From Azolla caroliniana (Eukaryota > Plantae > Polypodiophyta): 64,000 nucleotides of DNA. The position numbers were made by a program, and so were the translations under genes. The notes beneath the pieces are model-generated. The model was given only the letters and a program-made list of their open reading frames with translations. It did no database searches and was not told the DNA's origin. The stretch covers positions 6,076,001-6,140,000 of the forward strand of contig JBHGNT010000016.1 in the NCBI GenBank assembly GCA_043228905.1, given 5' to 3'. Positions 9,951 to 51,525 of the stretch are shown piece after piece (position 1 is the stretch's first letter; each line of letters begins with the position of its first letter).

Positions 9951-10552
9951 ACTTCTCTAAAACCTCTCTGTGTGGCCTTCTCTGTGTGTCTGTGTAAGGA
10001 AGGGCAAAATCTGTCAGTTTCTGTTAATTCAGTTGACTGCCCCTCCATGTTTTAAGAAATCTCCAAAACCCCTACCCCCCCCCCATGGTCATACTCTTTC
10101 TCTTTTTATTTACCATTCTTATTTACCAGGAGTCTCTACTAGATATAGGGGGGAAGGGGGGGGGGGGGGGGGGGGGGGGGGGGTTGAACACCCGACCTTC
10201 TTCTCTTTCTCTCTCAAAACTGTTACATACAATGGGTGTCACGATGGAGTATGGTATACAACAACAAAAAAAGGCACGGCATTTCTTCTTTTTTTACTGG
10301 GTGCAAGTGGAAATTCTTTCCTCGGTGGAGTCCGTCGTCCGCGTCTTGCCTATTAGCAATTCGAGATGTCCCACCACATGTTTAGTTCTCTCTCTTCTTC
10401 TTCTTTTTATCGTAATTTGCTTACGCTGCTGGTAATTTGTTACACTACTAGCGTTATGTCTTGGGTTTGAAACCCGAATTTCTCACCTCTATATCACTCC
10501 ATAAATATCTCTTAATTTACTAGATGCCACTATGGAATGTAGATATCTCGTG

Positions 10553-10617
<65 letters not shown>

Positions 10618-12296
10618 TAATGGGTCATATTATCGTCTTCGAAGGTCTAATAGGTCATATTTGACCTCCGAAGACGATAATATAATTTCTCTCTCTCTCT
10701 CGTAAATAATGGCTTTCATTACGAAACAAAATGCACCACCATGACTAACTTACTACAAAGTATAGAACCCTTCTATCTAGGGATCTAAAGAATACTACGA
10801 CACCAAACTCAATGCCACCCTACACGCCATTCAAATGGCGAGTATGATGATATGTAACCTTGTAGAGTTCTCTCTCTTCCTAGTTGAGATTTCGTGACTT
10901 CTCTAGCACTGTCAATTGCCACAAAATAAGTCCTTTTAATTTTAGAACATATTTTCTCACCCCAACTTACGAATAAAAAATGAAGGCATTCCGCATATTC
11001 CAATTGAACCATAGCCCCCAATACCTCAAGAACTTAAAAATAATTTGAAAATGAGGCAACGGTTCATTGTTCTCCATATGTGCAAAAACCCAACTAAAGG
11101 AAGATAGACTTACTCCTGTTAGAGACATCCACACTAAACTGATACACCTCCAAACCATCCTTGCCATCAGGCATGAAATAAATCGATGCCTACTATGTTC
11201 CAATTCCACTTAACAAAAGAAACACAATCCTTTAGTAATGTTTCTTTTTTTTAATGCACCCCCTAATGGTAAAGCTCCAACCATAACTCTCCAAATAAAA
11301 ATACCTTGGCTTGTAGCATCAATCGAGAACACCAACCTGCCTTGTTCACATGAAACCACCCAGTAATGGGCTTATGAAAACCCCATATCTTTATAACCCT
11401 TTCTTCCAACCACTTATGTTTGTCAATCAACTTGTGATAAGCAACATTCGTTGAGATCATAGTCAATCTCTTATTTCCAACAAACCTCCAATCAAGGTAT
11501 TGAGATCACCCATCTAAATCAAGATTTGGCTCATGCGAAGATAGTATTTGTTGCAACTTATCCCAAACAACGTTATAACTTTTTGGAATACGAAATGTTG
11601 ATCTTATGTTCGAAAAGCCATTAATCTTCTTTGTAAACCAACATAACATCCTTAACTATTACCAAACCCAATCTAGCCATCTGATTAATTTGAAGGTTAA
11701 GAATTTGTTTACCTTCCCATCTCAACAACCTTGATGTTGCCAAAACCTCTGTTCGTAATGAATTGGCACATCCCCTTTCTTGTGGGGGATGCCATTCCAC
11801 AAAATCCAACATACTTTGCCAATATGTCAACAAATGATTAACTATCATAAACCCTGTACATTTGACATCCATGTTAGAATTAATTACATTCCACCAATTC
11901 GCTTCAACCTTCATGTTTCCAAGATTTATTCCGTTATTCTCTATAAAGTATGCTACCATTTCTGTCCAAGGTTGTACACCTTCAAACATTAATTGAATGA
12001 AAGTAAATTGACGAGCCACCATATGCTCATATAGATTCAATATTGATGCCCCACCAAGACGTTTCAGAGTACAAACATGATTCCATGCCAACCATGACAA
12101 GGCACTTTTCCCTTTTCTTTCCATAACAACATTTGCTTTGAGCATGACAACATTTAAAGAGCTTTCTTTGACCATGGGATCAAAGGAAGATAATAAGATA
12201 CCATAATCGATTGGACCACCTTAAGTCGTACATGAAAAGGCCAAAAACTAAGACCTCCAATACATAAACTTATCCTCCAACCTTTTGGATACCCAT

Positions 12297-12751
12297 TGTT
12301 AGGAATAATACTAAAATAGAGAGAGAATTAGTACTAAAGAAGGGAAGTACTATTAGTACTAAGAGGACGGGACTGCATAAGACTCCCAAGAGAGAGAAAA
12401 GAGAAGAGGAGAGAGAAAGAGAGAAAGAGAGATACTGAGGACGAGAGAGAGAGATGATGATAACAGATGATATATTATAGGAAGAGTAAGTACAAGATGG
12501 CTATGAGGCTTAAGACTGGCGTTGAACCAATTTGGTTCAACATAATACCTAGTGCCTTTTTTTTATAATGTTCTCAGGAGTAATCGTGAAGCTTCTAGAA
12601 TGTTCCAGAGAAATATGGAATATACATTAATCTCCTATAATAAAACTTAAATGAAAATAATATCTTACGTATTACAATAGATGGTATAATGGTCAACAGC
12701 TCGACCCATATAACATAAGGTCATGGTTTCGAATCTTGCCATATCATGACA
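12297..12751 (-). repeat. 3' LTR (455 bp) of the minus-strand Gypsy element
   Basis: On the minus strand it starts TGTCATGAT right after the PPT and ends CCTAACA where LINE sequence resumes. TATAAAA starts at 12567 (minus). Confidence 0.85.
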
Positions 12752-15700
12752 CTATCTTCCCCTTAAGAATTCGTGGAACGAGTCGGTGCTGATTGCGAAC
12801 TGGGTTTGTCCGGATACTTTCAGTGGAACTCAGCAAGAATATCCTGAGTAGTGGCGACATGCTCGATGAGTTCCCAAGTACGTTCGCTCGGACTATAGCC
12901 GAGCCAATCGACCAAATAATAAAGTTTGTTGTGAACAAGTGTGGAATCGAGGACGACAACAACTTCATACTTTGTGCCGGCTTCCAACTCAAGCGGGGGC
13001 GGCGGTGGTGTAACACGATCGGGAATAGTGTTTGCTTTATAAGGTTCAAGAAGAGAGCTATGGAAAACCGGATGTATTTGAAGATGCGGAGGGAGATCAA
13101 GGCGGAATGTGACATCATTAACCTTACTAGTAATACGAAAAGGACTGAGTCGTCGATAATCCAACTTGTCGCACGGTCGAGTAGTCTTGATGTGACAACG
13201 TAAGAGCCATACTCGATCTTCGATGGCAAAAGAGGAGGGAAGCCGATGACGATCCGCATAAGTCTTCTGTGTGTGTTGAGCATGACGAAGATGAGTAGAG
13301 AGATCCATCTGGATCTTGCGTGGTCTCTCCAAATGATCCTCAACACGAGGATTGGTAGGTAGCTCCGGGGTGTCGATCACCGACCAACAAGGATGAGAAT
13401 CGGTATAAGCATAAAGTGGGGAGACCCAAGTCGAGGAGTGAACATCATTATTATATGCAAACTCTGCAAAGTGGAGAATCTCGGCCCAATCGTCCTGTTG
13501 ATAACTCAGAAAACACCGGAGATATTGTTCCAACGTTTGGTTGGTTCGTTCCGCCTGCCCATCGGTTTGGGGATGGTAGCCGGAGGAGAGGTTGCAAGAG
13601 ACCTTGAGCATCTTGAAGAGATGCTACCAAAATTTGGAGACGAATTGAGGTCCTCGGTCACTGATGATATTGTCTGGGAGGCTATGATGCCGAAATACCT
13701 CACGCATGACAAGGGTGGCGGTTTCCTCGCTAGTGATGGCCTTAGTACACGGCACAAAATGTGCCATCTTAGTATATCGATCGACGACGGTTAAGATAGC
13801 ATCGAACCCCTTCGAGACCGGAAGATCTGTGATAAAATCAAGACAAATAGAATGCAACGGCTTACTTGGAATCGGTAAGGGTTCCAACAAGCCATATGGA
13901 TGGTGTCGAGGCATCTTTGCTCGGCAGCAAGCATCACAAGTCCGAACGTAGTCATCGACAAAACGTCGCATATGGGGCCACCAAAAAGATCGTTGAACGA
14001 GATCCAACATCTTAGTACTACCGAAATGTCCCGCCGTATGGGTGTCGTGACAATTTTGGACGATTTGAAGGCGACAGGAGCAATCGGGGACATATACAAG
14101 CTTTTTAAAGAATAACAAACCATCATGATATTTGAATTGTTGGTAGTCCATACCTGGTTGTTGAGATTGGGAACACGATGCCCGAGAGGTATCAATGTGT
14201 GCCAGAATGTCTTGAGCAAAATTGTTTGTCTTCAAGTTCGCACGTATGGCATTGGTAATCCAGGAATCCATTGAGGTGTGAAAAATCCGCATTGTGTGCA
14301 ATCATGTTGGTCCCAATATTACTTGCTTTTGATTATCAAACGCTGGATCACCAAGACGAGGTACAAGATATGAATGTCGTGATAGCGCATCTGCTTTTCC
14401 TTGCTGCTTCCCTCGTCAATATGTGATTTTGAAGTTGAAACGTGTGAGGAATTGAGCCCACCAAGCTTGCCGTCGATTTAGCACCCGAGCGTTCTGGAAA
14501 TAAGCAAGATTTTTGTGATCACTAAAGACGATGACTTGATGTGGAGAGCCCTCTAAGAAATGCCACCATTTCACAAAGGAATCCACGATGGCTAATAACT
14601 CCTTGTCATGTATTTCGTAGTTGATTTCTGCGGCATCGAATTTGCGTGAATGAAAAAGCCACAGGATGTAACTCTTTTTTATCTCCTTGTTGAGAACGGA
14701 TGCTACTGAGGGCGAAATCCGATGCGTCGGCCTCCATGATAAATGGTTTGTTTGTATCCACATGAGCTAGAATAGGAGATGATGTAAAGGCTTTCTTAAG
14801 ATGCCGAAAAGCCATGTCCGCTTCATTGGACCAAAGAAATGTTTGTCCCTTCTTCGTAAGTTGTGTGAGAGGTAAAATAATCTTCGAGTAATCCTGTATA
14901 AACTTGCGGTAAAAGTTAACAAAACCTAGAAAACATTGTACATCTCGTATCAACCGTGGAATTTGCCACTTTAACACAGTTTGGACTTTAGCTACATCCA
15001 TGGAGATGCCCTTTGAGGAGATGACGTAGCCTAGAAATTCCACTTGCTTGCAGTCGAAGCAACATCTTTCTAGGTTGGCATAAAGACCATTCTCGCGGAG
15101 TCGTTTTAGTACTAATAGTACATGAGAATTGTGCTCTTCGGGGTCTTCAACTAAATCAATAGATCATCCAGATAGATTATCAAACAGATATCCAAGAGGT
15201 CTCTGAATATATCATTTGCCATGTGTTGGAAGACTGTGGGTGCATTGGTTAGACCAAACGGCATAACAGTATATTCGAAATGCTCATACCGCCTGCGAAA
15301 GGCGGTCTTCCATTCATCTCCCAGTCGGATCCGCACGAGGTTATACGCTCCTCATAGATCGATTTTTGTAAAAAACTTGGCACCATTAACTCGCTCTAAA
15401 AGACTTGCTATAAGAGGAAGTGCATACCTATTCCGAATGGTGACTTTATTCAAGCCGTGGTAATCAACGACGAGACGAAGTGAGCCATCTTTCTTCTTGA
15501 CAAAGAAGATGGGTGCACCAGCCGGAGATTTGGAATGACGAATAAACCCACTTGCCAAGTTCTCCTCTATGTAGGCTCGAAGGATTTCTAACTCGGTGGG
15601 TGACAAGTTGTAAATTGGTCCCCATGGTGGCTCTGCTCCTAGTTGTAAATCGATGGGACAATCATAGGGACGATGATGAGGAAGAGTACCGGCTTTTACC

Positions 15701-15881
15701 TTGTCAAATACATCAGCATAAGGATGATATTTCGCCGGAAGTTGCACTAAGGATTCCTCCTTAATAGTGCTGGAAGGATGTACTAATATTGCAAATAGGA
15801 ACATTGCCTCCTTGTGTCCTTCTTCTCGTAATTGACGTAGTGAAATGGTCGAAACTCGATGAGTAGATTCTTGGGGTTCTC
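12297..15881 (-). mobile_element. 5'-truncated chromovirus Ty3/Gypsy element (RT, RNase H, integrase, chromodomain, PPT, 3' LTR); no gag or 5' LTR
   Basis: [49 protein letters not shown], integrase HHCC and SDRGPQF, and chromodomain YEV..LDS..YYLVDWLGY. The PPT (minus) AAGGGGAAGATAG at 12752-12764 abuts the LTR. Confidence 0.92.
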
Positions 15882-18800
15882 GATAATAAGATACCATAAT
15901 CGATTGGACCACCTTAAGCCATACATGAGAAGGCCAAATTTGAGACCTCCAATACATAAACTTATCCTCCAACCTTTTGGATACCCACTCAATAAGTTTG
16001 ACATGAGAAACTTCCACTCCAATTGGATATCTAAGGTGATGACAAATCATACCACGATGTACTATCCTTCCTAACCACCCCAACCCTAACACGTCTTGTT
16101 ATGTACATCAAACCCTAAACCCTATATTAATTCTCAATCCTCAAGCATTTGAAAACAATTCCCACACATCTCTTGTATTACAAATATTTTCCCGATTAGG
16201 TGCCAAGAACATAATATGGTCATCTACGAGAGCTTGAACAATACATGGCTTCCCTGATGGCAACCTTAGTCCAAACAATTCTTCCTCCATAGCCATATTG
16301 TGTAACTTAACACGAATAGGATGTGTCACAATAGTGAATAGTAAAGGACTTACCAGGAATCCTTGTCTAATTGACTTCCGAATAGAAATCAGTTGTGTTA
16401 CTCCATTAAACATCACATGTGAAACCTAACCCTCCCCTAATGTGTATATCAACTTAGACATACGATCACCAAAACCCATATAAGACATCAATTGATTTAT
16501 AAATGACCAATCCACATTATCATAGGCTTTCTCGATATCCATTTGTAGCAACACTATTCCTTGTTTAGACTCCTTTGCATAGTCAGTTGTCATTTGAACA
16601 TTTAAAATATTATGTAAAATGTCTCTTTTTGCTAAAAACCCATATTGAGCATTATGAATAATAGAAGGTAAAATCTTATGCAACCTATTGGCCATCACTT
16701 TTGCAAAAATATTGTACATTCCCCCCATCAATGAAATAGGCCTCCATTGAGCAAAGGAAGATGGAGAAGGCACCTTCGGCAAAAGCTTGATCAAACCAAT
16801 CTTCCAAGAATGAGGCAATTCCCCTGATGTCCACAACTTTTGAAATAAAACCGTAAAAGGCCCCTTTAACTTAATCACATATTTCTTAAAGAGTTCATGT
16901 GTTAATGCATCCCACCCATGACTCTTATCATTAGCAAGATGTGACATGACATGTTCCACTTCATCCTCTTAAATATTAGCATCTAATGATTATGCCACAT
17001 CATGTGATACATGATTTTTCACTCCATTAAAAAATACATCTCTATCCTTTTTAACATTATCATCGATACACATTTGGTACATCCAACAATTGTGTATAAT
17101 ATTCTATGCATTTCTTCACAATTTCTTAAGGATCAGAACACATGATACCATTTTCCTCTAACCTTACCACATTATGTCGTGCATGTGATTCATGAAGGTC
17201 ATGAAAAACTTATGTGATTGACAATTAGCATCATCCACTTCTTGTCTTAGACTATGTAGTCTAGCATGTTCATAATTTTTTGTCGTTAGGTCATGCATCA
17301 CAAAAATTAATACCTCTTGATATCCCATCAACTCTACATCTGTTGGCCAATAAGTTAACAATGAGTTGCATTTATCAAGCAAATTAGCTAGGAGACTTAA
17401 TTTCTTTCTCCTTTTAAAAGCACGGTGAATTCCATAATATCTAGTTAACCTCTGAACATTTGAAACAAATACTCCCCACGCTTCACACCCATCAAATTGA
17501 ACACGATGGGCAAATGCATCAATCAATTGACACATATAGGCATGGAAGACCTCATGATCCAAAAATGATGAATTAAAAATCAACTGTGGTTTTCCTAAAA
17601 ACTCATGAAAAACTCTAAGTGAGTGGGGATTGAACTCAAAAAATAATGGGAAATGATCTAATATAATTGACCCATAAGACACTGAAATATCCAAAATCTA
17701 TTGTAAAAAACCTTCGGTATGCATTACATACATTCGATCCAACCTACTCCAAGTATCCTTATATTGAGCCGATTGAAAGGTATAACCAAGTTCATCTCCC
17801 TTGATCCATTTCCATACATCTCTTAACATGACTTCAGTCTCAAAATCTCCCCATTCTTGAGCCTCTGGTCCACCCATAATAGAGTGGATAGATGTTGATT
17901 GATCTGTCTCACAACAAACATTAAAATCTCCCATCAATAAACCTGGTCTACCATTATCAAGCATTGAGTTTAGAGATCTTCATAACAACTTTCGTTCTTG
18001 TGAAACATTTGATGCATACACACCAACTAACCAAAGAGCTTGCCCTTCATAACATATCTCTACCACAATAAATCTTCCAAATTCATCTAAAACAATTACT
18101 TTTTGGTGAAATTTATCTCTTATAAACATGACAATCCTAGAATAATCCCCATGAACCTTGCCAACATAACATAATGTATAACCCTTAAAATAACTAATTA
18201 AACCAGCATTACGATGATCTTTATGCTCTACTGCACATAAAACATCCCATTGCTCACTTAACACAATCCTCCAAACCTCATGCATTCTAAATATAGAACA
18301 CAATCCCCTCACATTCCATGCGGTGATCTTTATACTTTAGTTTTTCCTTTTATTCAAGAAATCTCCTTCTCCTTCATTGCTAATGTTTCTGCCATATCCT
18401 AAAATAAATCCCCTAAGATTGCATATGAATTATTATGGGGATGCAAAACTGCAGACCCCGATGGCTCCTCGTGTGAACGAGGCACCGATTTCTGTTTATT
18501 CCAAGGAACATACAAATTACCTTTATTATCGAAAGATCATTTCTTTGGATAGTCCTCTTGATGAGCCCATGGTTTATTCTGCATGGGATTTGTTGGTGTG
18601 ACCTTCTCCATAGATACATTATGCCCAACATTTTTATTAGACTTTTTCATCTTTCCAAAAATTATTGACCATTGTCCTTCATCCTCTACAGTCTTTCCAT
18701 CCTTCTCATTCACAATTTGTGGTTCCTTTGTTTGCTCTGAAATTGTCAAAGCTTGAATCTGATCATGAGTTGTAGGCTCTTCATGTACCACTTCCACTAC

Positions 18801-19614
18801 ATTTTTTCTTTTTTGAGGACACTTAGCCATAAAATGCCCAATACACCACAATGGAAACAATATCCTACAAATGTACCCCATTTAAACCGAAAATAGATAA
18901 GCGGCATACCAGAGCATGCGATCTGTAAACAACGTGGCCTCTTTATAGCAATATTCCAAAGAATACACATCCGATATCGATTTTGAGCATTAGCACTAGG
19001 AGGCACCAAGATCTTTCCCAACTTTTCCATCGTTGACCGTAATATTGGCCAAACCACCGAATATGTGCACTCTACCTCAACCCATACGGGACACTCTTGC
19101 TTTAATATATCTTGGTATTCCACTAGTGGCCTCCATGGAACAATATGAACCAAACTTTTCTCATAAAAAACTGGCAATTTATTGAGTAATTTCTCTTTAT
19201 ACTCTTGTGATACCAAAACAAACTCATAAAATCCATGAGGACCGGCATAAACATCCTAAACACAATCAACTTGTAAAATCCCACGTAACCATTGTCTGAC
19301 CCTCCAAAGGAAAGGTATCTTCCCCATGAAAAACAATATGACCCCTTTATCACAAAAATTAGCAAATGAACCCAAAAACTCCTTATTGTCTATTTCTACC
19401 TTAGCCACTTCATCGTCAACAAACTCCTCAACAACTTTCACATTCTCCTTTATACAATCCTCCATTCATATATTTGCCATGCATCTTAAATGTTCCCAAG
19501 GACTATCATCTTGTCGCATTGCATCAACATAAGACATGTCATTACTATTATCTCCAATACATCATTTTCTTTTACCATCCCCTCTTGGACTTGATACTGA
19601 CTCAACCATGTATG

Positions 19615-20072
19615 TGTCATGATAACACTCACATCATGCATCAAAAGGATTATGACACTCACATTATGACTCAAAAGGATTTGAACCCACGACCTTGTTG
19701 TACACATGTCAAATCCTTAACCATTGTATTAATATTCTTATATGTATAATCTCTAGAATATGAAATCTAATATCATAGGAATATTCTATATTACTCTACA
19801 TTCTAGAATGACCTAGAATATTCTAGAGTGTTCTATACCACTAGAACCTTCTAGAATACTCTAGAGATCTTCTAGATTACTCTACATTCTAGGATAACCT
19901 AGAATATTCTAGAGTGTTCTCTATTACTTATAAATAAGGATCTACCACCCATCCCAAACCTAAATTGGTTCAACGCCATTTTGTAGCCTACTCTTTGTAA
20001 TCCATTTTACGCTTCAATATAATAATTCTCTTTCTATCTCTTTTTCTCTCTTTTTCTCTCTCAGTCTTGACA
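19615..20072 (+). repeat. 5' LTR (458 bp)
   Basis: TGTCAT...TTGACA, with TATAAATA at 19929 and multiple TCTAGA repeats. It matches the 3' LTR apart from roughly 9 substitutions and a 20-bp indel (counted by eye). Confidence 0.95.
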
Positions 20073-20159
20073 GTTTGAATCAATTTTTTCCTTTCATCTC
20101 TTCGTCTTCCACAAATTCTAACAAGTTCTCTTCTTCCTTCTCCTCTCCTCTCGTAAGCT

Positions 20160-21284
20160 ATGGAGTCCGTGAGCAAACAAGAATACATGCATGTTCTTTT
20201 TGAGCTCGACATGCTCACGAATAAATTTGTGGCATTAGAGCATGAGAATCAAAGGCTACTTGGAGATCTACAACACGTGAGCGCCGAAAAAGCTCAACAA
20301 TATGAAGAGTTATCACAACGGGTTCATCAACTCGAGGCGACTATATTGTCATTACGTGAGCAAGCGTCGGGGGCTCAGAACTCCCCTAGAGAGCCAAAGA
20401 TCAACCTCCCTGCCAAGTTTGATGGTACGAGGTCTTTATTTCGAGGCTTTTTGAATCAAGTTCGTCTAGTTATTCAGCTACATCCCAATCGGTATCCAAC
20501 TGATGTTGCTCGTGTGGGATTAGTGGGAACTTTGCTATGCGGTACGATGTTAGCATGGTTCGCACCACTTCTCGAGAAGAAATCACCATTGCTGGAGGAT
20601 TTCGAGGCATTTGTTAAAGAGTTTCAAGCTAGTTTCGGAGACACCGACAACACTAGGACAACGATAAACAAGATTCGAAGGCTCCGACAAGGAGATCGTC
20701 CCGCGTCGTCTTATGCAGTTGATTTCCGTCTCTTGGCATGCGATATCCCTTGGGATGAGGCAGCTTTAATGGATCAATTCCGTCAAAGTTTGAGAAATGA
20801 TGTCAAAGATCTTCTTCTTACTTTCCCTGAAGATCCGCAGTCACTTACAGAAGCCATTAGTCAAGTTGTGCGATGTGATAATCGCCTATTTGAGCGACGT
20901 TCTGAGCGCCAACAAATGTTACGCCGCCAACCTGAGCAGACTTACGCTTCTGTAGTCGCAACGCCTCCACAAGTTTCTAGACCCATTACAAGGGATGGCC
21001 CAACTCCGATGAAAATAGAGTCAACACAACGTCATGGGCCGTTATTAGATGCTGAGAAGCAACGACGTCGAGCGCATCGCCTTTGCCTGTATTGTAGCGG
21101 TCCAGGACATATAGCTGTAAATTGTCCACATAAACCTAGGCGTCAAGTATACCAAGTAAGTGCCCATGAAAACCCTACATCGAGTTCTATTGTTACTTCT
21201 AATAACATAAATAAGCCTCATAGTCCATGCCGTGAGAATAGATTCAATGTCTTGAGTTAATTAGAGGATGTGTTAAACGAGTAA
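20160..21284 (+). pseudogene. Gag (sushi/PEG10-like capsid plus zinc knuckle); TAA at 21258-21260 is probably premature, with the natural stop likely at 21282-21284
   Basis: PKINLPAKFDG, LRQGDRPASSYA, and the knuckle CLYCSGPGHIAVNC. Confidence 0.88.
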
Positions 21285-24200
21285 GTCCGGCCAAAATAGG
21301 AGCCATTTGACTGGACCATCCTAGCCATGTAGAGTTAGTTCCTAGTCGTGGTTCCATTTCATCAAATCAAGTGAGTCGAGTTTTTTCAGCACAAGTCGAG
21401 CTTACCACATCTGCATGTCATCGAGTCCTAGCCTCTGCCCTTCTAGATTCTGGAGCCAACTCTTGTTTCATGGATCGTGAATTTGCCTTGTCACAAAACA
21501 TCCTCTTGAATAAGCTTCCCAGCCTAGTAGTCGTAGGAGTCATTGATGGATGTCCCATAGCATCAGGAGATATAGTCGAGGAGTCTGAGCCAATTAGGAT
21601 AGTTCTTGGCAATTTGGCAAGCATAATCTCTTTCAACATTATTCGTAGTTCGGAACACCCAATAGTTCTAGGTCTCCCCTGGTTTGAACTCCATAACCCG
21701 AAGATTGATTGGATGAAAAGAACAATTGAGGAGACCCGGGAAAAAAGCACAAACCCTGCATCCCTCTCTCCTACATGTGATAATAGATCCCCTGAGTTAT
21801 CGCCCATCTCTTTACGATAGTTGCGGGAGGAAGGGGGGAACGAGGTCATGTTTGTCTTCGCAATAATAGCAACTCCATCATCCACTTCACATGAGGCGGA
21901 TATTAAACTACCAGAGAAATACAAGGAGTTTTCAGATGTCTTTGATAAGGTGAAGGCCAATACATTGCCGGAGCATCGGCCATACGATTGCCCTATTGAC
22001 TTACAACCAGGGAAAGAACCTCCATGGGGCCCAATTTATAATCTCTCCCCTGTAGAGCTAGAAACTTTGCGGGAATATATTGATGAGAATCTGGCAAACG
22101 GATTCATTCGGCATTCTAGATCCCCTGTTGGTGCACCTATCTTCTTCGTTAAGAAGAAGAATGGGACTCTTCGGTTGGTCGTGGATTATCGAGGGCTAAA
22201 CAAAGTGACTATCCGGAATAGATATGCTCTACCATTAATCCCGAATCTTTTGGAACGTCTCAGTGGTGCAAAATATTTCACGAAGTTGGACCTTCGCGGA
22301 GCATATAATCTAGTTTGGATTCGCCCAGGGGATGAATGGAAGACAGCTTTCCGCACTCGCTATGGACATTTTGAGTATACAGTGATGCCATTCGGTCTCA
22401 CGAATGCACCTGTTGTTTTCCAACATATGGCGAACAATATTTTTCGAGATTTTCTTGATATCTTCACTATAGTTTACCTAGATGATATTTTAATCTACTC
22501 AAAGACCCAAGAGGAGCATGATGAACATGTTCGTCAGGTATTGCGTTGACTCCGAGAATATGGTCTCTACGCAAAATTAGAAAAGTGTAGTTTCGGCCAG
22601 AATCAAGTGTAATTTTTGGGGTATGTTGTATCGTCAAATGGTATTGCTAGGGACCCCATGAAGGTACAAGCAATTTTAGAGTGGCAAACGCCCCTTTCGG
22701 TGCGTGATGTGCAATGTTTTCTCGGGTTTGCAAATTTTTATCGAAAATTTATTAAAGATTATTCCAAGGTTGTGCTTCCGCTTACTCAGCTCACACATAA
22801 AGATCGACCATTTATATGGAGTTCAGATGCAGCCGAGGCATTCGAAAGCTTAAAACGAGCATTTACAATGGCACCTATCTTAGCACATGTCGACCCAACA
22901 AAACGCTTCATCCTCGAAGCCGATGCATCTGATTTTGCACTAGGGAGTGTCCTCTCGCAGACTGGAGATGATGGACAACTACACCCTGTTGCCTTTCATT
23001 CACGAAAGTTTGAAGCTGCAGAGATCAACTACGAGATCTATGATAAAGAGCTTATTGCAATCGTGGATTCATTTCAACAATGGCGACATTTCCTAGAAGG
23101 TTCTTCTCAGCAGATCATTGTCTACAGTGATCATAAGAACTTGACTTATTTCCAAAATGCTCGAGTCTTGAGTCGGCGACAAGCCCAGTGGGCGCAATTT
23201 TTGACTCACTTCGATTTTATCATCATATATCGCCCTGGGATGCACCAAGGCAAAGCATATGCTCTTTCTCGGCGCTCTTATATGGAACTTCGTCCAGGGG
23301 AACCTGCATTTAAGCATAAAAAACAAATCCTTTTGGGTCCCAATCGATTACGATTAATGGTAATTAACGCCATAACAACTCTTGAAAATTCCACTCTTCT
23401 TGATTCCTTTCGAGATCATATGGCCACTGATGATTTCGCCAAGGATGTTTTGGATCATATCGTCCCGGATCGTGCTTCTTGCTCACGGTCGAAAAATCCT
23501 CGTAATGACTATTGTCAGTTCTATTGGCATGGTGGTTTTCTATTTCGACAAAATTTATTGTATGTTCCTGATGGTCCCCCACGGCTACAAGTTTTGCAAC
23601 ATTGCCATGACTCACCAATGGCTGGTCATTTTGGAGTTCACAAGACTCTAGAATTAATTTCTCGACGCTATTGGTGGCCTCGCCTTCGACATTTTGTTGA
23701 GGAGTATGTTCAGAGTTGTGATATATGTTGTCGATCAAAGAATCCTCGTCACCGACCCTATGGCTTACTACAACCACTTCCCATTCCGGAAACTCCTTGG
23801 AAGTCTATATCCTTGGACTTCATTACTGATCTCCCTGTTTCAAAAGGTTTTGATGCAATTCTCACAGTGGTTGATCGATTTACCAAAATGGCACATTTCT
23901 TGCCATGTACAAAGTCGATTACTAGTCAAGAGGCGACTGATCTCGTTATGTGGGAGGTATTTAAGCATCATGGTTTGCCGGATGATATTATTAGTGATCG
24001 TGGTCCACAATTCATCTCAAAGTTTTGGAAGCACCTGTTCAAACTTCTCCATATTTCAGTTAATCTTTCTTCGGGCCATCATCCTAAAACAACTGGCCAA
24101 ACAAAGCGTACCAACCAGACATTGGAACAATATCTTCGTTGTTTCATCAACTATCAACAAGATGATTGGGTTGCTTTTTTGCACTGGCGGAATTCGCTTA

Positions 24201-24913
24201 CAACAACTCAGCCCATTCTTCTACAGGATATTCCCCATTTTTCGCAAATACGGGTTGTCATCCTCGGTGGACGATGAATGCGCATCCGGAAGTTCCTACC
24301 AACCCTGCTGCCGAGGATCGTCTTAGTCACCTCCAAAAAATTCAAGCTAACATTCTCCACAATTTGCACGATGCTCAATTTACACATAAGAGGCTTGCCG
24401 ATCGTCATCGTCTAGACTCCTCAAAAAAGTTCCGCATTGGGGATCATGTATGGCTTCTCCAACACAACATCAAGACCACTCGACCTTGCAGTAAATTGGA
24501 TTACCAACGTTTTGGCCCTTACATGATCACTGGTAAGATAAGTGATGTTGCATTTCGTCTTGACCTCCCTCCGCACATGCATCTTCATCCGGTGTTTCAT
24601 GTATCCCTTTTGGAACCTTATACTACAAGTTCAATTCCAGGCCGACTTACGACACCCCCACCACCTATCGAGTTCTTGGACGGGCCTGAATTTGAAGTTG
24701 CTGCCGTTCTTGATTCTAAAATCGTGCGCAACATACTTAGTCGATTGGCTAGGTTATACCCCCAATGATCGAACTTGGGAACCTGCCGCAAATCTTTCCA
24801 ATGCTGCAGAACTCGTCAATGCATTTCATCGCCAATATCTTTGTAAACCAGGTCCTAATACAAAACCTACGACACGTGAGACGTGTCGTCGAAGAAGGGG
24901 GATAGTGTCATGA
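21278..24913 (+). pseudogene. Pol (protease, RT, RNase H, integrase, chromodomain) in the -1 frame relative to gag; broken by stops and frameshifts
   Basis: LLDSGA protease, YLDD, EADASD, integrase core and GPY motif, and chromodomain FEVAAVLDS..YLVDWLGY. Stops at 21308, 21818, 22547 and ~22610. Frameshifts at ~24185 and ~24730. Confidence 0.92.
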
Positions 24914-25343
24914 TAACACTCACATCATGCATCAAAAGGATCATGATACTCACATTATGTCTCGAAAGGATTTGAACCCACGACCTTGTTGTACACATGT
25001 CAAATCCTTAACCATTGTATTAATATTCTTATATGTATAGTCTCTAGAATATGAAATCTAATATCATAGGAATATTCTATATTACTGTACATTCTAGATT
25101 GTTCTATACCACTAGAACCTTCTAGAATACTCTAGAGATCTTCTAGATTACTCTACATTCTAGGATAACCTAGAATATTCTAGAGTGTTCTCTATTACTT
25201 ATAAATAAGGATCTACCACCCATCCCAAACCTAAATTGGTTCAACTCCATTTTGTAGCCTACTCTTTGTAATCCATTTTACGCTTCAATATAATAATTCT
25301 CTTTCTATCTCTTTTTCTCTCTTTTTCTCTCTCAGTCTTGATA
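24906..25343 (+). repeat. 3' LTR (438 bp)
   Basis: Direct repeat of 19615-20072. It ends TTGATA (C-to-T change in the terminal CA motif region) and is followed by the TSD. Confidence 0.95.
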
Positions 25344-26464
25344 GTATGCATCCTTTGAAGAATTTGGAGACTCATCCATATTCATGAAAACACTACCATC
25401 CATATGACAAGAAATAGGAGAGAGCTCACTTACAAGTAATTGTGTTGGAGAAGGAATCAAAGCAAGATATCATGAGATGCATGCAACCGAATGGATTTTT
25501 TACTCGTAACGCTCTACCAAGACCACAAATGATACGTGCAAGTAATCTTTAGAAACCTCTATGCGCAGGCTTTGAAACGAGCTAAAGAACAAAGGAAATG
25601 GACACCGTAGCAAGAATATACATCAAAATTAGTGTTTGTCATTCTCCAACATCTCCCAACTTTGCATTTCTCCGCTCTCTCTCTCTCTCTCTCAAGCTCC
25701 CAAAGTTTGTCTTGTTTCGTTAGGAAGGCTCTCTTGGCACATAACACGACCGAATTGCTCATCCGCTTCCTCTACCAGCCTGCCAACAAAGCGATAGTAT
25801 TTTGGATTTTTTGTGAAAATGAGGAATATCTCTACAACATTCCCGTTTTGTATCGACGTAGACACGATGTCACTTTCAAGTGTACATGTGGATATACTCA
25901 TGCATGTGTAGATGTATGTAATTTCATGCTAATTTAGCATTCAATGACTGGTCCTTAGAAATGTGGCATTGAGCTTGGATACATGAAATCACAAGAATAA
26001 ACAAAAAAAAAACAAAGAATGCTCACTTTAGCACCATTACTCCAACCAATGCAACAAATTAATTGCTCAAATAGGAACATGGTGTGAATGGACAATTTAT
26101 TATTAGGGAGTAAAACAAGGCTTCGTTGATCATCAAACTTGTAGAATTGTCAACATTCGACAACTAAATTCAAGCTTGACCTAATGATAAAAGCTCTTGA
26201 TTACTTGAGAAAAACAATGGTACAATTATTCATTTGATAAAAAAGGAGTAAAAACAAACGATAATGCAAAGGAGGTGCATAGATCTAATTACAAAACTAG
26301 AATGGAATCTAATAGTGTACACCATGTTCATTTAAAATTTATGCATGATCTTCCCACACCCACACAAAGGATATCCATGTGTCTCTTATAAATAAAGGAT
26401 AGAGTAGTTATGTATTATTCTATCACATTTTCTCATCTAATCAAGCTAACCTCCAAGAAGAAAT

Positions 26465-28039: not shown

Positions 28040-28158
28040 AAGGATTCGTTCAAATGGTAAGAGCTTATGTTGTGAGTGGGAGATAAGAGGTTTGTGTCCT
28101 ATTTAGACCATAGGAGATTAAGTGGATAAATGAATGTGATGGTAGACATTGTGATTAC
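28040..28158 (+). mobile_element. tRNA-derived SINE-like repeat, copy 1
   Basis: Degenerate A box (28047-28057) and B box (28089-28099), followed by the tail agattaagtggataaatgaatgtgatggtagacattgtgatta, which is shared with the copy at ~36900. Confidence 0.55.
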
Positions 28159-32231: not shown

Positions 32232-32462
32232 AAGATTTTTGCAATGTTCAATTAATAGAAAGAAATGCTTGAACATGGAGAGACACTCACTACTAGTCTG
32301 TATTTCAGACCGATTTGGGTGGGATTCGATCCCAAGACCCATTTATTTGCTCCCCTGTTCCTGTTCCTGCTTCTCCTGCTTCTGCTCCTGCTTCTCCTGC
32401 ATCTTCTGCAGGCTTGATTTAGGGTTTCCTTCCTCTCCATCCTCTTGCTTCCCTGCTTTCGA

Positions 32463-35400
32463 ATGGCTTCCCCCGCTCCGTGCCCCCCTGATGAGGAGAC
32501 CATGTCCAGTGCCCTCGCCTCCATCTCCAGCAGACGGGAGAAAGCCTCCAAAGCCCTCTCTGCCCTTGAAGGCCACAGGAACCTCATCTCCTCTTGCATC
32601 CACAAGTGGCAGGAGCTGGAACGAAGCTTCGGCGTCGCAGAACGGTCTCTGCAGCAGAAATTCAAAGAGCTCTCCGAACGGGAGAAGGAATTCGATGCCA
32701 AGATGGAAGAGATGAGAGGAGGTCTGGAGAAGAGAGAGGGCTCGATACAGAACAGAGAGGAGGCATCGTTGGCCCGTGTGAAAGAGCAGAAGGACTCAGC
32801 GATTGCTGCGATCCTCGAAGAGAGGAAAAAAGTCGAGGAGCAAAGGTTGCGGAAGGGTGATGGAGTGGAAGAGGAGGTTAAGTATACAGAGAAGATTAAA
32901 GATTCATATGAGAAGAATGTATCAGAAGAGAATGTGTCAGAGAAGAAGGCATTAGATAATGATGTGACAGAGAAGAATGTATCAGAGAAGAAAGAAAAGG
33001 AAAAAGAAATGGAAACGGAAAAGGAAAAGGAAAAAAATAAAGCATCAGGATCCTTCAAGAATGATAAAGAAATGCAACAAAAGGCTGTACAGAAGAAGCC
33101 TTGCGGAAATTTAGAAGCGCAGCAAAAGGATGAGAATCAAAACAAGAAAACAAAACCTGAGAAAGAAACAGGAATTTATGAAATGGATATGAATAAAAAG
33201 AAGAGGAAAGATTCACAACATGGCGAGGATGCAGCAATTGCAAAGCGTATCAAAGAAGTTTCTATACCGAAGAGGAATAATCGGAGCTCTGATGGTGCAA
33301 TAAGCCTCGAAGAAGCCATAAGCCAAGCTAAAGGAGCTTCGGATGGTCAAGTTCTGTCTCAAATGAAGTTTCTTATAGAGAAAAGTGATGGAAAAGGTCT
33401 TCGAGAACTCATTTCTCAACACATCAAAGAGATACCGGAGAGAGGAACGGAATTGCGCTCTGCTCTTCAGGCTTGTAATGATCCTTGCCGTATCATCTTA
33501 AAGGCTTTTGATGTCTATGAAGATGTGAAGAGAGCCACTTTCATCAACAAAAATTGCCAAGCGTGTATACTTCTTTTGGAGAATCTTTCAGAAGTTATTG
33601 CCGATCCGATCCTAGGATCAGGTTACCCTGTAGTTCCTGTTGATGTTCGAGAGGATGCAAAGGTGGTAGCTAGGCATTTGAAATCGAGACTTGAGATTCA
33701 GAGAAGAGATGATTATAACCTTGAAGTTCATCTCTTTTTGCAATTTCTTGCAACATTTGGGCTTGGTACCGAGTATAGTGATAATGAATTGTTGAGCTAT
33801 GTTGTTTCCATATCTCGTCGTGGCATGGCGCCATCGTTGTGTCGAGCTCTTGGGTTAACCGAGAGGATACCAGGTCGGTGCTCCAAATGATTCATAGATT
33901 AAAAGCATCATATGGTAAATTGATTAGAGAGTTCTTAAATTTGAACCAAGGAAGTATAGGAGGATTAGTCATGACTTAGCATTAAAAAAGTTGGTATGAT
34001 ACATTGTTAGTGCTAGTACTTGCCAGTTATTTAAAACATGTTTTGAAAATGAGTGTATATTATGGTTAGTGCCTAAACAATCCATGGGTCAAGCATGAGA
34101 CATAATTGACGCTTTAAGTGTAGGATTAAAAGATTTCTTGATCTAAACTCAAGGAAGTTCTGAAGGATTAGTCCAAAATTAGAATTGACTTGAGTTTTCC
34201 AAAATGCGTTTTAAAGAGGATAAAGTACGTTGCTGTTCTGTTCAAACTATTGATTGGTTAAGCATCAAATTTCCATTGGTTGGAACAAGTAATTTTCAAA
34301 TCCTAATATGGCACACTTGTTTTTTAAATGCATTTCAAAAATGTCAGTAAAACATTGTTGGTGCACAAAATAATCCACGTATCAAGCTGTAGACATTCAA
34401 TTGCTACCTGGCTGGTGCTGAATAATTAATGGTTTAGTATACGAAAATTGATTAAAGATTCTTAGATTTAACTGAGGAAATTTTTGAGGGATTAAACCTA
34501 ACATTCATTGTTTGACTGCTTAAAATTATAGCCTCTTCGCAGTCTTGCGACATTTTTGAGATTTTGTTCAGTGCATGCCTGATAGCGACTACAATGTTAA
34601 ATACTAGCATTTGTGAAGGATGAAACAGACCAGAAATTAGGTGGAAGCTATCTAATTAGAATTTTTTCTGCTATATTACTGCTTACTAACAAACCATATT
34701 CTATACATTGAAAACATTTTTTGTTTTAGACGAACGTTTTTTCTTTTATTTTGAAGCCCTGATTACTAATCTTAAATATTCCATTTTGAATGCACAGTAT
34801 TAGTTGACAGACTTATTAAAGAAGGGAAGCAGCTAGAGGCAATTTCGTTTGCATCATCATTTGGTATAATGGACAAGATTGATCCAGGCTATCTTCTGAG
34901 AGCATACTTGGAAGATTCAGAACGAGCAGCTCAGTTATTGGTAGAGAAAGCTCGATCAAAAGCATCTGGTTTGGTGTGTACAATATAAATCAGTTTTCTG
35001 ATCAAGTTATATTTCAAGTGTCTTTTAACTCTAATGAAGATCTACATTTGGTGGCAGAACGATGCTCATGTGAAACAGGTTTCAGCCCTAAAAAGTGCCG
35101 TGAAAACCATAGAAGAGTATAACTTGGCCTCCTTCATGTCTCCAGAGAGTTTGAAGAAGCGGATCGTAGCACTGGATGAGGAAAAATCTGAGAGGAAAAG
35201 GGCATCCACGGTGTTTAAGCAAGAGAGAAAGATTACCAAGAGTGTCCAAGAAATGAGTAATGTTGTTGATATAGGCCTTGGCTCAGATCCTAATACTGTC
35301 ATTGGCTCCAAGTCTAGTAATGCTTCAAATGCTGGTGAAAGAGGCCAATATGTGCTTACTGATCTTGGTCGGCCTATGGGACGCAGTAATTATGTAGGTA

Positions 35401-35813
35401 CAGACTTGGGACCATCCTATCATTCTTCTTATGGTTTAGCTAGTCAATATGACTATGAAAGAAGACCAGAATCTATACATAGTTCGGGATATGGATACAA
35501 TGGCAGAATCCCAATATCACAATCTAATTCATATGTGAGAGAAGCAGTTGGTCCTGCATTGAGTGGATCGGATTTGCGCATATCAACTGCATCATCATAT
35601 CCGGGAATTTTGGGATCTAATGGTAACTACCCACATGGCTCCATTTTACCTCTCTCCAACTATCCACGTGGCAGTGTACCTTCATCCAACTACCCACATG
35701 ACAGTAATGTACCGCCATCTAACTACCAACATAACACCAATGTTCCCCCATCCAACTACCCACATACCAACAATGTACCCCCATCCAACTACCTTCCTTA
35801 TTATAGACGGTAG
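32463..35813 (+). CDS. FRIGIDA-like protein, ~780 aa; exons 32463-33873, 34798-34973, 35058-35813
   Basis: N-terminal coiled coil (KWQELERSF..SLQQKFKEL). The FRIGIDA domain has DGKGLRELI, ALQACNDPCRIILKAF, CILLLENL, FLQFLATFGL, LCRALGL|..LIKEGKQLEAISFASSFG..LLRAYLED and ALKSAVKTIEEYNL. The 3-exon structure is typical of the family. Confidence 0.93.
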
Positions 35814-36899: not shown

Positions 36900-37020
36900 T
36901 TGTATTTGATTAGTGGATATTCTACCTAAGCTCTTTTTGGGAGGTCAAAGGTTTGAATCTTATTTGGGCAATATAAGATTAAGTGGATAAATGAATGTGA
37001 TGGTGGACATTATGATTATC
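36900..37020 (+). mobile_element. tRNA-derived SINE-like repeat, copy 2
   Basis: A-box-like TTGATTAGTGG (36906) and B-box-like GGTTTGAATCT (36950) are 44 nt apart, followed by the same tail as the copy at 28040. Confidence 0.55.
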
Positions 37021-39475: not shown

Positions 39476-41836
39476 TTAACTCGTATCGACCCATGCATTA
39501 TTGCTTGGTTTCTTCCAATGAGCATGTTTCTGCCTCACAGCTTCAAGTATTAGTGCACCCTCTTCTATTCCTGCAGCTGCATAAATATTAGACATAAGTA
39601 TGTAAGCCGCAGCGCAACTATTATCTAGTCGGATTGCTTGATCAAAAGCCAATCCTCCCAGCTTCACGTTTCCCCATTTTCTACAAGCAGCCAGTAAAGC
39701 AAGCCAAACTGGAAGATGATCACATGATGGAATTGAATTGATGAATGACATAGCTTGGTCAAAGTGCCCCCCACGTCCGAAATTAACAACCATGCATGTA
39801 TGGTGCTCCAAATTCTGTAAAACTCCATATTTTCTGCTCATATTTCTAAAATAAATTTGGGCTTCATCAAATAAGCCTGAGTGACTACATGCATTTAGAA
39901 CACACAACAAGGTGACTGCATCCGGGGAAAAACCCTCGTCTCGCATCCGCTCGAAACATTTGAATGCTTCATAAGCTTTCCCCCTCTGAGCATAGCCCGC
40001 AATAACTGCAGACCAAGAGACTATGTTTCGAGTAGGAAGTTCTTTAAGTACTTCCTCAGCTTTTGCAAGCGCTCCGCATTTTGCATACATACCCACCAAT
40101 GCGTTACCTAGCACAATATCTTTATCCAGCAAGCCCATGTGAACAATCTCATCATGAATTTCTTTGCCCTTGTCAATAGCACCTATACAGCTACAAGCCT
40201 TCAAGATGCAAGCAAAGGTGATCATGTCTGGCAAGATGCCCTCACCTTTCAATCGTTCAAAACAATTCAGTGCTTCATGACCCCGTCCCTGCTGGGCATA
40301 GCCTGCAATTAATGCAGACCAGGAGACAACATCCCGAACACACAGATGATCATGCACTCGTTGTGCTTTTGCAAGCAGACCACATTTAACATACATATCC
40401 ACTAAAGCATTGCCAACCACAGAATTGTTTTCTAAAAAACCCCTATTAATAATCTCACTATGAATTTGTTTGCCCTTGTCAATGGCTCCTATACTGCCAC
40501 ATGCTTTCAAGATGCATGTCAATGTTACCACATGTGGAGACAGGCATTCTCCTTTCATACGCTCAAAACAGTTCAATGCTTCATGACCTTGATGCAATTG
40601 GACATATCCCGCAATAAGTGCAGACCATGAGATCATATCTCGAACATGAATCTTTTCAAGCGCTTCATGAGCTTTTACAACTTCACCACATTTTGCATAC
40701 ATATCAACCAGAGCATTGCCAAGAACAATGTACCTTCCTAACAAACCCCGTCTAGCAACCTCATCATGAATTTGTGCACCCTTTTCTATAGATCCTGTGC
40801 TACTACAAGCCTTCAAAGCGTAAGTGAAAGTTACCACGTCAGGGGCAATGCCATCCTCTTTCATCTGTTCAAAACATTTTAGTGCTTCATGACCTAACCC
40901 AAGTTGGGTATATCCTCCAATTAGTGAAGACCAAGAAACAATGTCCCTAACGGGAAGCTCATTGAGCACTTGCTGTGCTTTTCCAAGCACACCGCATTTT
41001 GCATACATGTCCACTAAAGCATTACCAAGGACAACACTGTTCGACAGTAATCCCTTCCTAATAATCTCATCATGAAATTTTATACCCTTACCAATATTCC
41101 TTGTGCTGCCACATGCCTTCAAGATGCAAGTAAAAGTAATGGCATCGGGAGATAAGCCCTCACTATGCATACGCTCAAAACATTTCAGTGCTTCATGACC
41201 ATGCCCTTTTTGAGTGTACCCAGAAATTAGTGCAGACCAAGAAAATATGTCTCTGACAGGAAGATCTTCAAGAACTTGTCGTGCTTTTGCAAGCTCATTA
41301 CACTTTGCATACATATCCACCAAAGCATTACCAAGCACAATGTTTTTCTGTAGAAAGCCCCTTCGAACAATCTCACCATGTATTTGTTTCCCTTTATCAA
41401 TACATTTCATAGTTCCGCAGGCCTTCAGGACGCTAACATAAGTGATTGAATTGGGAGACACACCAACCTTTTGCATCTTCTCAAAACAGTTTAGAGCTTC
41501 ATGGCCTTGCCTACATTGGGTATATCCTGCAATTAATGCATTCCAAGATACTATACTTGGGACTGCAAGCTGGTCATGCAATATTTGAGCTTTTCCAATT
41601 GCACCACATTTAGAATACATACTGATTAAAGAGCTAGCAAGATCAGACCTCTTTTCCAACAAACCCTTTTTTAGAATGTCAGCATGCAATTGACCTCCTT
41701 TATCCAGATCTTTCCTCTTAGCACAAGCTTTGAGTAGGGCTACAAAGTCAAAAGCTTCATTTTTTACATCCATTGTCAATGCTCCCCACATTCTTTTCTT
41801 CAAACTCCTTCGTTGATAACTAATAGCTCTTCTCAT
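39476..41836 (-). CDS. PLS-class pentatricopeptide repeat protein, E subgroup without DYW (putative organellar RNA-editing specificity factor)
   Basis: The uninterrupted ORF has about six P-L-S triplets (VSWSALIAGYAQ / TFTCILKAC / GNALVDMYAKCG), then P2-L2-S2 and E motifs (VWLALLAACRKWGNV, AYILMSNIYAAAG), ending at the PG-box-like KKPSNNAWV. The first in-frame ATG is at 41836; upstream exons are possible. Confidence 0.93.
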   Translation of the reverse strand: MRRAISYQRRSLKKRMWGALTMDVKNEAFDFVALLKACAKRKDLDKGGQLHADILKKGLLEKRSDLASSLISMYSKCGAIGKAQILHDQLAVPSIVSWNALIAGYTQCRQGHEALNCFEKMQKVGVSPNSITYVSVLKACGTMKCIDKGKQIHGEIVRRGFLQKNIVLGNALVDMYAKCNELAKARQVLEDLPVRDIFSWSALISGYTQKGHGHEALKCFERMHSEGLSPDAITFTCILKACGSTRNIGKGIKFHDEIIRKGLLSNSVVLGNALVDMYAKCGVLGKAQQVLNELPVRDIVSWSSLIGGYTQLGLGHEALKCFEQMKEDGIAPDVVTFTYALKACSSTGSIEKGAQIHDEVARRGLLGRYIVLGNALVDMYAKCGEVVKAHEALEKIHVRDMISWSALIAGYVQLHQGHEALNCFERMKGECLSPHVVTLTCILKACGSIGAIDKGKQIHSEIINRGFLENNSVVGNALVDMYVKCGLLAKAQRVHDHLCVRDVVSWSALIAGYAQQGRGHEALNCFERLKGEGILPDMITFACILKACSCIGAIDKGKEIHDEIVHMGLLDKDIVLGNALVGMYAKCGALAKAEEVLKELPTRNIVSWSAVIAGYAQRGKAYEAFKCFERMRDEGFSPDAVTLLCVLNACSHSGLFDEAQIYFRNMSRKYGVLQNLEHHTCMVVNFGRGGHFDQAMSFINSIPSCDHLPVWLALLAACRKWGNVKLGGLAFDQAIRLDNSCAAAYILMSNIYAAAGIEEGALILEAVRQKHAHWKKPSNNAWVDTS

Positions 41837-50063: not shown

Positions 50064-50079
50064 GCCCACCGGAGACCAA

Positions 50080-51325: not shown

Positions 51326-51374
<49 letters not shown>

Positions 51375-51375
<1 letters not shown>

Positions 51376-51525
51376 ATGAGGTCATGGGTTCAACCCCTAC
51401 ACTCCATATTGGCATCTAGTGAATTGAAAGTATGTATGAAGTTTGTAATAGAGAGGTGAGAAAATTGGGTTTCGAACCCAAGACATAATGCTCATCATAT
51501 AATAACTTACCACTAGGGTAAGGTA
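51375..51525. repeat. Dispersed ~150-bp repeat with tRNA-like boxes, flanked by (GA)n; inverted homologue at ~10415-10545
   Basis: ggcatctagtgaatt and gagaggtgagaaaattgggtttcgaacccaagacataatgct match the reverse complements of aatttactagatgcc and agcgttatgtcttgggtttgaaacccgaatttctcacctct. Confidence 0.7.

Follow-up and report, generated by a model that had tools for sequence, protein, structure and literature searches.

Pol III promoter elements within the LTRs of plant retroelements are known from the Cassandra TRIMs, non-autonomous elements in which a 5S-derived promoter (A, IE and C boxes) drives the element's own transcript (PMC10886601, PMC12786077). Cassandra had been offered as the parallel for the locus treated here in a preliminary description of the sequence. 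The shared feature, Pol III promoter elements in the LTR, stands, but a nearer known parallel is found in Helenus (TRIMp3), whose LTRs are tRNA-derived. As with the elements described below, Helenus has a tRNA-like sequence in both LTRs, with conserved boxes A and B and no functional tRNA, and generates a 5-bp TSD; its hosts are plants and fungi, and its proposed origin is the insertion of a SINE into an LTR (PMC10886601). Helenus elements are, however, non-autonomous and 311–1263 bp long. In the Helenus entries examined here, the tRNA part lies in sense and acts as the promoter of their own RNA, and their PBS is complementary to a tRNA (PMC10886601). The same paper (Kojima 2024) argues that autonomous elements depend on Pol II and that LTR stretches of this kind are unlikely to occur in them as well. 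Because the paper speaks of 'not a few' tRNA-like LTRs and analyses TRIMs alone, similar cases may sit unremarked in Repbase (PMC10886601).

Plant Tcn1 chromoviruses resemble the elements described here in domain order, aromatic-cage chromodomain, self-priming and 5-bp TSD, and probably in a seed-free plant host, as all named matches of a neighbouring FRIGIDA-like gene are from ferns. A tRNA-like or Pol III LTR element is not mentioned in the passages of the Tcn1 descriptions covered here (PMC6317226, PMC2864245, PMC3350952). A/B-box Pol III units that yield hairpin RNA do occur in the LTR of an autonomous retroelement, as the miRNA cassettes of foamy viruses, but these have terminators and defined products (PMC3993851), while the present cassette has no conserved terminator and a patchy hairpin. 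The bipartite Ty3 PBS offers a further likeness, since its 3' part, located at the 3' end of the RNA genome of this Gypsy element, comprises two blocks complementary to a tRNA. Ty3 is primed by tRNAiMet and its blocks match that one tRNA (PMC11381356), whereas the elements of the clade described here self-prime and keep promoter-type positions and spacing. Pol III promoter DNA that acts on local chromatin is known from tDNA and SINE boundary elements, which are free-standing host genes or SINEs and not built into LTRs (PMC11346459, PMC8136502). In the open-access articles covered here, no description of a comparable cassette was found for Tcn1 or for other autonomous LTR elements of plants. 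What appears to be new here is a Pol III-type LTR module in autonomous elements, and its antisense orientation. Pol III-type LTRs, as seen in the small dependent elements Cassandra and Helenus, thereby come to include those of autonomous elements, contrary to a published expectation.

The window, meaning the whole stretch of 64,000 nucleotides of Azolla caroliniana DNA that was analysed, holds two related Ty3/gypsy elements, both inside a decayed LINE (Table 1). The full-length element, E1, encodes gag, protease, RT, RNase H, integrase and a chromodomain, although its pol is disrupted by frameshifts and stops. It is bounded by the 5-bp TSD GTATG (19610–19614 and 25344–25348), and its 5' and 3' LTRs differ by 9 substitutions in 439 aligned bases and by one 20-bp indel. 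With a length of 5.7 kb and gag-pol present, E1 is not a short non-coding TRIM, and it further departs from Helenus in that the tRNA-like part lies antisense at the outer edge of the LTR, a TATA box is kept, and the PBS is complementary to the 5' end of the element itself. The Gypsy order PR-RT-RH-INT followed by a chromodomain is that of Tcn1 chromoviruses in REXdb; the assignment to Tcn1 is based on this domain order, the aromatic cage and self-priming, and the integrase tree contains unnamed loci only. The cage reads Y..W..Y in E2 and most homologues, with F at the first place in E1. The second element, E2, has lost its 5' part but retains part of RT, RNase H, integrase, the chromodomain, the PPT and the 3' LTR. 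Its pol is 66.6% identical to that of E1 over 2868 nt.

E2 is bordered by a 107-bp direct duplication of LINE sequence (12189–12295 and 15882–15987, 93.5% identical), and its flanks are without a 5-bp TSD, which suggests insertion via break repair and not by integrase. Each E1 LTR opens with two tandem units of about 38 nt (19615–19690 and 24906–24981); many contigs start at the second unit, so one-unit and two-unit E1 LTRs coexist. Integration targeting to Pol III sites was considered and set aside, as nothing points to it and E1 and E2 both lie inside the LINE.

Table 1. Coordinates of the two chromoviruses and of the predicted promoter, priming and cassette features in the window.
Feature	Position	Strand	Remarks
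Element E1	19615..25343	+	Full-length chromovirus, Tcn1 type
E1 5' LTR	19615..20072	+	458 bp
B box, E1 5' LTR	19677..19687	-	GGTTCAAATCC, 11/11 match
Variable-loop-like AGGTC (tRNA-type), E1 5' LTR	19691..19695	-	
A box, E1 5' LTR	19721..19731	-	TAATACAATGG, 10/11 match
AT-rich zone, E1 5' LTR, 5–50 nt upstream of A box	19736..19781	-	Putative TFIIIB platform
TATA box, predicted Pol II promoter of E1 LTR	19929..19936	+	Predicted function
Self-priming motif at predicted transcript start, E1	19962..19973	+	12 pairs with PBS, 33 nt after TATA
E1 PBS, self-priming	20073..20086	+	Not complementary to tRNA end
E1 polypurine tract and spacer	24891..24905	+	
E1 3' LTR	24906..25343	+	438 bp
Antisense cassette, E1 3' LTR	24968..25022	-	A box 25022–25012, B box 24978–24968, then TTTC
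Element E2	12297..15881	-	5'-truncated related chromovirus
E2 3' LTR, sole LTR of E2	12297..12751	-	455 bp
Antisense cassette, E2	12682..12736	+	A box TGGTATAATGG 12682–12692, B box GTTTCGAATCT 12726–12736

The preliminary description had placed an antisense, tRNA-like Pol III cassette at the outer end of these LTRs, and its boxes were recovered where it had put them. In the E1 5' LTR, the A and B boxes lie on the minus strand, 44 nt apart from start to start, with the expected AGGTC between them, and the 3' LTR repeats both boxes. In E2, the equivalent boxes have the same 44-nt spacing and run antisense to pol, and the cassette ends 15 nt inside the LTR edge. Pairs of A and B boxes with at most two mismatches in total comprise, in the 64-kb window, the three LTR cassettes and one further pair at 51520. 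When the first 170 nt of each LTR were subjected to dinucleotide shuffling, a comparison that had been proposed as a check, the observed score was reached in 0 of 150 shuffles for E1 and in 0 of 150 for E2.

Other parts of the earlier account had to be revised. A TTTT run directly after the B box is present in the E1 5' LTR but not in the 3' LTR, which has TTTC, nor in E2, where no T4 follows for 1317 nt; at 19673, a base that breaks the run is found in 78–98% of contig depth (four runs, four coded organisms). E1 and E2 had been treated as separate cases from two divergent families, whereas pol identity and the integrase tree place them in one clade. The minus-strand LTR, which had been called otherwise poorly alignable, shares the cassette as described, and it also has a TATA box and a self-priming motif in common with the E1 LTR.

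Relatives were gathered through an integrase alignment, which gave 79 metagenome loci (from the best 80 of 575) and 17 from prokaryote assemblies. An antisense cassette lies just inside the LTR, after the PPT, in 15 of the metagenome loci. Together with E1 and E2, this makes 17 copies, all of them antisense (17/17). The A–B distance is 43 or 44 nt in 16 copies and 46 nt in the remaining one, and the B box lies 15 to 62 nt from the LTR edge. Box mismatches number three or fewer in 14 of the 17, four in L006, and five in L012 and L072. Eight of ten tested copies beat all 150 shuffles, while the scores of L012 and L072 were reached in 18/150 and 10/150, respectively. In a quick, midpoint-rooted tree of 60 of the 94 integrase fragments (at least 43% identity, plus E1 and E2), all 17 cassette copies fall within one group of 21 rows, with an SH-aLRT of 89 (97 without L012 and L013). 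Among the other four rows of this group, L008 and L013 break off within the LTR, after 9 and 24 nt, respectively. The remaining two, L065 and L066, represent one decayed copy inside the clade and have no cassette, possibly as a result of loss.

Beyond this group, the cassette was not recovered in the sequences covered. Among 44 LTR-like starts of outgroup elements, located by pattern and in some cases doubtful, 42 have at least five mismatches, one has four, and one (L023) has three. Within the first 170 nt of the L023 LTR, an antisense B-box-like stretch lies 21 nt inside the edge, with a weak A box 49 nt off and without AGGTC; this pair is probably due to chance. A cassette profile found nothing under E 0.01 beyond the known copies in 508 kb searched, and no match of note in the 39 tree rows outside the subclade. 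None of the 17 distant relatives from prokaryote genome contigs carries the cassette, and no integrase relative was found in viral contigs.

Several relatives appear to be autonomous, as stop-free pol frames of 1183–1235 aa are present in L001, L004, L007, L008, L009 and L010, although each of these six probably represents many copies collapsed in assembly. Among the best 120 matches of a search with the full pol, none was assigned to a named plant host. The 15 cassette-bearing relatives all come from one accession series. They are therefore not independent hosts, and the host range may be a single genus. Because E1 and E2 are related self-priming Tcn1-type chromoviruses, a single acquisition is indicated. 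Separate SINE insertions in each family were ruled out by the homologous sequence and identical placement across one clade.

Comparison of nine families indicates which parts of the cassette have been kept. Pairwise identity in the flanks is 0.37 upstream and 0.30 downstream. Within the cassette, it is highest for AGGTC (0.91), the 3' half of the A box (0.80) and the B box (0.75), and lower for the A-box 5' half (0.50) and the anticodon zone (0.43). The boxes are thus more conserved than the sequence around them, which bears on another of the checks proposed at the outset. Four-fold degenerate integrase sites of the same nine families have an identity of 0.395, with saturation at 0.30. Simple inertia is ruled out because identities of 0.75–0.91 in the boxes stand against 0.30–0.40 at neutral sites. 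Coding constraint on the cassette is ruled out as well, since the pol stop codon lies at the start of the LTR and the cassette is therefore non-coding. Invariant columns include those that we take to be T8, G18, G19, G53, T54, T55 and A58 of the tRNA numbering. The retention of T8 amid varying neighbours is more in keeping with a promoter that is read by proteins than with base pairing. The promoter model gives no account of two further invariant columns, both of them T's of the anticodon zone.

Variation within families was also examined. In the E2 family, the A box is poorly kept in its 5' half, as each of the seven positions from 12682 to 12688, including G10, T8 and A14, varies at a level of 8% or more in one or more of four runs. 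G10 is missing in E1, L002, L003, L007 and L012, a change at T54 is common to L017 and L057, and C56 is absent in three copies. Among the changes of at least 8% listed for the E2 family in the four runs, none falls at 12716–12751 apart from two positions at which the window copy alone differs, in each case with a weakened or altered B box. Of the 56 variant rows for E1, the 40 examined include none in the B box, one at an N position of the A box, and seven in the 33-nt spacer, two of these within AGGTC. Changes in the B box are mostly transitions.

The DNA upstream of the A box has a composition of its own. In 10 elements, the AT fraction 5–50 nt upstream of the A box is 0.81–0.87, compared with 0.53–0.75 elsewhere. 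The upstream regions of plant tRNA genes are likewise AT-rich and TATA-bearing (PMC3082873). The plant CAA motif has no consistent placement among the copies. In its layout, with AT-rich DNA upstream of A and B boxes that are spaced as in a tRNA, the cassette corresponds to a type 2 Pol III promoter, but it has no oligo-T terminator at a fixed place. A profile built from the LTR copies only was run against 120 phage loci preselected by a B-box pattern, and 24 of its 29 matches at E ≤ 0.01 were same-strand tRNA genes; the best full-length matches were phage Ile(TAT), Met and Asn tRNA genes. Judged by these comparisons of sequence, the cassette is real, clade-wide and under selection. The central claim of the preliminary description, that the LTRs of these chromoviruses keep a tRNA-derived, promoter-type module, is upheld by the clade-wide presence of the module, its conservation and the profile match to tRNAs.

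The cassette does not resemble a tRNA in its structure. ARAGORN found no tRNA in it, and the tRNA-model search that had been recommended turned out negative, with an Rfam tRNA score of 12.5 bits (E 3.5), below the gathering score of 29, and no significant match in 12 loci. A functional tRNA gene or cloverleaf was rejected: 51.8% of cells are paired, compared with 36–49% when the model is slid, and only 34.7% and 43.7% in the anticodon and acceptor stems, respectively. In the most basal copy (L012:1108–1188), a 5-bp anticodon-like stem with a 6-nt loop is kept though the boxes are the most decayed of all. A long, imperfect hairpin of 16 pairs, which joins the D/anticodon side with the V/T side, is partly kept. 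It is paired at 73.6% in antisense (slid controls 28–51%) and at 66.5% in sense (slid controls 16–44%), the slid control being lenient because the structure was derived from these same sequences. Its covariation is weak (18/500 shuffles for antisense and 165/500 for sense), and that of the antisense hairpin is no more than relatedness gives. RNAalifold returned no consensus structure on either strand. Mean fold z-scores are −0.9 in antisense and −1.55 in sense; L001 reaches −4.8 and −6.1, respectively, and L017 (−3.0) and E1 (−2.7) also fold strongly in sense. The first T4 past the B box is met at 0–51 nt in 13 of 18 cases and at 452–1317 nt in the other five. A defined antisense RNA of about 70 nt, as had been suggested earlier, is consequently unsupported, since T4 is not conserved and is absent at that place in the E1 3' LTR.

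Inward of the cassette, the LTRs appear to carry a Pol II promoter and a priming system that dispenses with tRNA. A TATA box lies 114–183 nt inward of the A box in 10 of 11 elements (L003 is too short). In E1, L004, L007, L010, L012 and L073, 9–12 bases of the PBS pair with a motif 32–36 nt after the TATA box, and there are compensatory changes between PBS and motif among these six elements. From this pairing, priming is predicted to be of the Tf1 self-priming type, which is known for plant Tcn1 elements (PMC6317226) and needs no tRNA primer. The E1 motif lies in a small inverted repeat and has a resemblance to a B box, by coincidence or otherwise.

The explanation that we favour, while holding it a little below even confidence, is that the cassette serves as putative docking DNA for TFIIIC and TFIIIB, that is, as a chromatin element placed back to back with a Pol II promoter. 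An ancestor of the clade would have captured a tRNA-derived head, from a SINE or a tRNA gene, backwards, at the outer end of U3. A SINE head is a plausible source, given the several free tRNA-head repeats of the window, one of which shares the V-loop/B-box stretch (E 0.017). Descendants would have retained the A box, the B box, their spacing and the upstream AT-rich zone for the binding of TFIIIC and TFIIIB. Placed back to back with the TATA box of the Pol II promoter, this site could keep the neighbouring promoter nucleosome-free and block silencing that spreads from flanking heterochromatin. Such a barrier would be useful because the group I chromodomain is expected to guide the element into heterochromatin; the group I chromodomain of MAGGY binds H3K9me (PMC3350952). 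If a Pol III transcript arose at all, it would be incidental and vary in length. A DNA site is the best fit because promoter bases, spacing and AT platform are kept while cloverleaf and terminator are lost, and because the cassette points outward, back to back with the TATA box. This chromatin reading draws on work on tDNA and SINE boundaries (PMC11346459, PMC8136502), and in one review tRNA genes are described as nucleosome-poor and as insulators (PMC11346459).

Some observations sit less easily with a docking site. TFIIIC tolerates variable A–B spacing, so the strict spacing found here is not demanded by such a model. The variable 5' part of the A box, the copies that lack G10 or C56 or have T54 changed, the inconsistent CAA motif, the shuffle-level scores of L012 and L072, the cassette-free L065/L066 and the single accession series of the relatives also count against it, as does the partly kept hairpin, for which a pure DNA model has no need. 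The hairpin, together with the retention of both boxes and AT-rich zone, would suit an active Pol III gene whose hairpin-headed antisense RNA matters in itself, as a limit on copy number, a source of small RNAs or a decoy for silencing. Transcription would leave the element at the 5' LTR or, when started in the 3' LTR, pass over the PPT into integrase. Precedents exist in the Pol III miRNAs that simian foamy virus LTRs produce from A/B boxes (PMC3993851) and in the antisense RNAs by which Ty1 is trans-silenced (PMC12786077), and the hairpin is better paired in antisense than in sense, with L001 folding strongly. Nevertheless, an RNA of this kind is improbable given that its 3' end is not conserved, covariation is weak, no consensus fold emerges, and the mean antisense z-score is low. 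About equally improbable is a role in the genomic RNA, in which the boxes would pair with a host tRNA at its D and T arms, or a U3 hairpin would form beside the PPT, in the service of dimerisation, packaging or strand transfer, comparable to the 3' part of the bipartite Ty3 PBS. The antisense orientation and the location immediately behind the PPT, in the 3'-terminal part of the genomic RNA, suit such a use; the 3' PBS parts of Ty3, of 12 and 11 nt, bind tRNAiMet (PMC11381356), and a tRNA-like sequence in the HIV-1 U3-R region is reported to promote strand transfer (cited in PMC6468702). The B-box transitions could mostly be tolerated through G-U pairs, and sense-strand folding is strong in L001, L017 and E1. 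Yet the elements self-prime, with compensatory changes to match, no single parent tRNA can be named, and sense covariation is at shuffle level. A genomic-RNA role also leaves the upstream AT-rich zone, the isolated T8 and the fixed spacing unexplained.

A relic of a SINE or tRNA without any Pol III role, kept by inertia or by the binding of some other host or element protein, is less probable still. Repeats with tRNA heads are common in the genome, Kojima's 'not a few' Repbase LTRs have tRNA-like parts (PMC10886601), and some cassette copies are decayed; against this, box identity far exceeds the neutral level, and the kept positions of this non-coding cassette are those of the tRNA promoter. 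Chance resemblance, to which the non-significant Rfam match and the three-mismatch pair of L023 at 49 nt might point, has next to no credibility. It is refuted by the shuffles, by conservation in identical place, strand and spacing across the clade, and by a profile that recognises real tRNAs.

If the docking-site explanation is followed further, the cassette might represent a portable Pol III-type barrier and promoter opener in every LTR of autonomous, heterochromatin-seeking chromoviruses, a broader proposal that is tentative and, on balance, doubtful. Were it true, autonomous LTR elements would use the Pol III machinery against silencing, and with each new insertion and each solo LTR the host genome would acquire a Pol III chromatin boundary. 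As the families are abundant in their hosts, many candidate TFIIIC sites would have been added to the genome. How chromoviruses are transcribed after insertion into silent chromatin is an open question, to which a conserved 55-nt cis element with point-mutable boxes offers one testable answer.

The window contains further tRNA-head repeats. It had been suggested that the cassette might seed SINEs, but the SINE-like heads of the window share with it only a generic V-loop/B-box stretch and could equally be its source. A repeated composite (10383–10606 and 51330–51558) consists of two tRNA-head-like pieces on opposite strands, set in GA microsatellites; in the copy at 51520 (minus strand), the A and B boxes are 42 nt apart. 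SINE-like sequences at 50075–50150 and 50320–50400 have a B-box head and (GAA)n tails, and their 3' stretch is common with this composite. A further SINE-like family with a tRNA-type head is represented by two partial copies (28046–28157 and 36938–37018). Elsewhere in the window lie a PLS-class PPR gene with an E motif (39476–41872, minus strand) and a FRIGIDA-like gene (32418–35813, plus strand), the named matches of which are all from ferns, at 36–45%.
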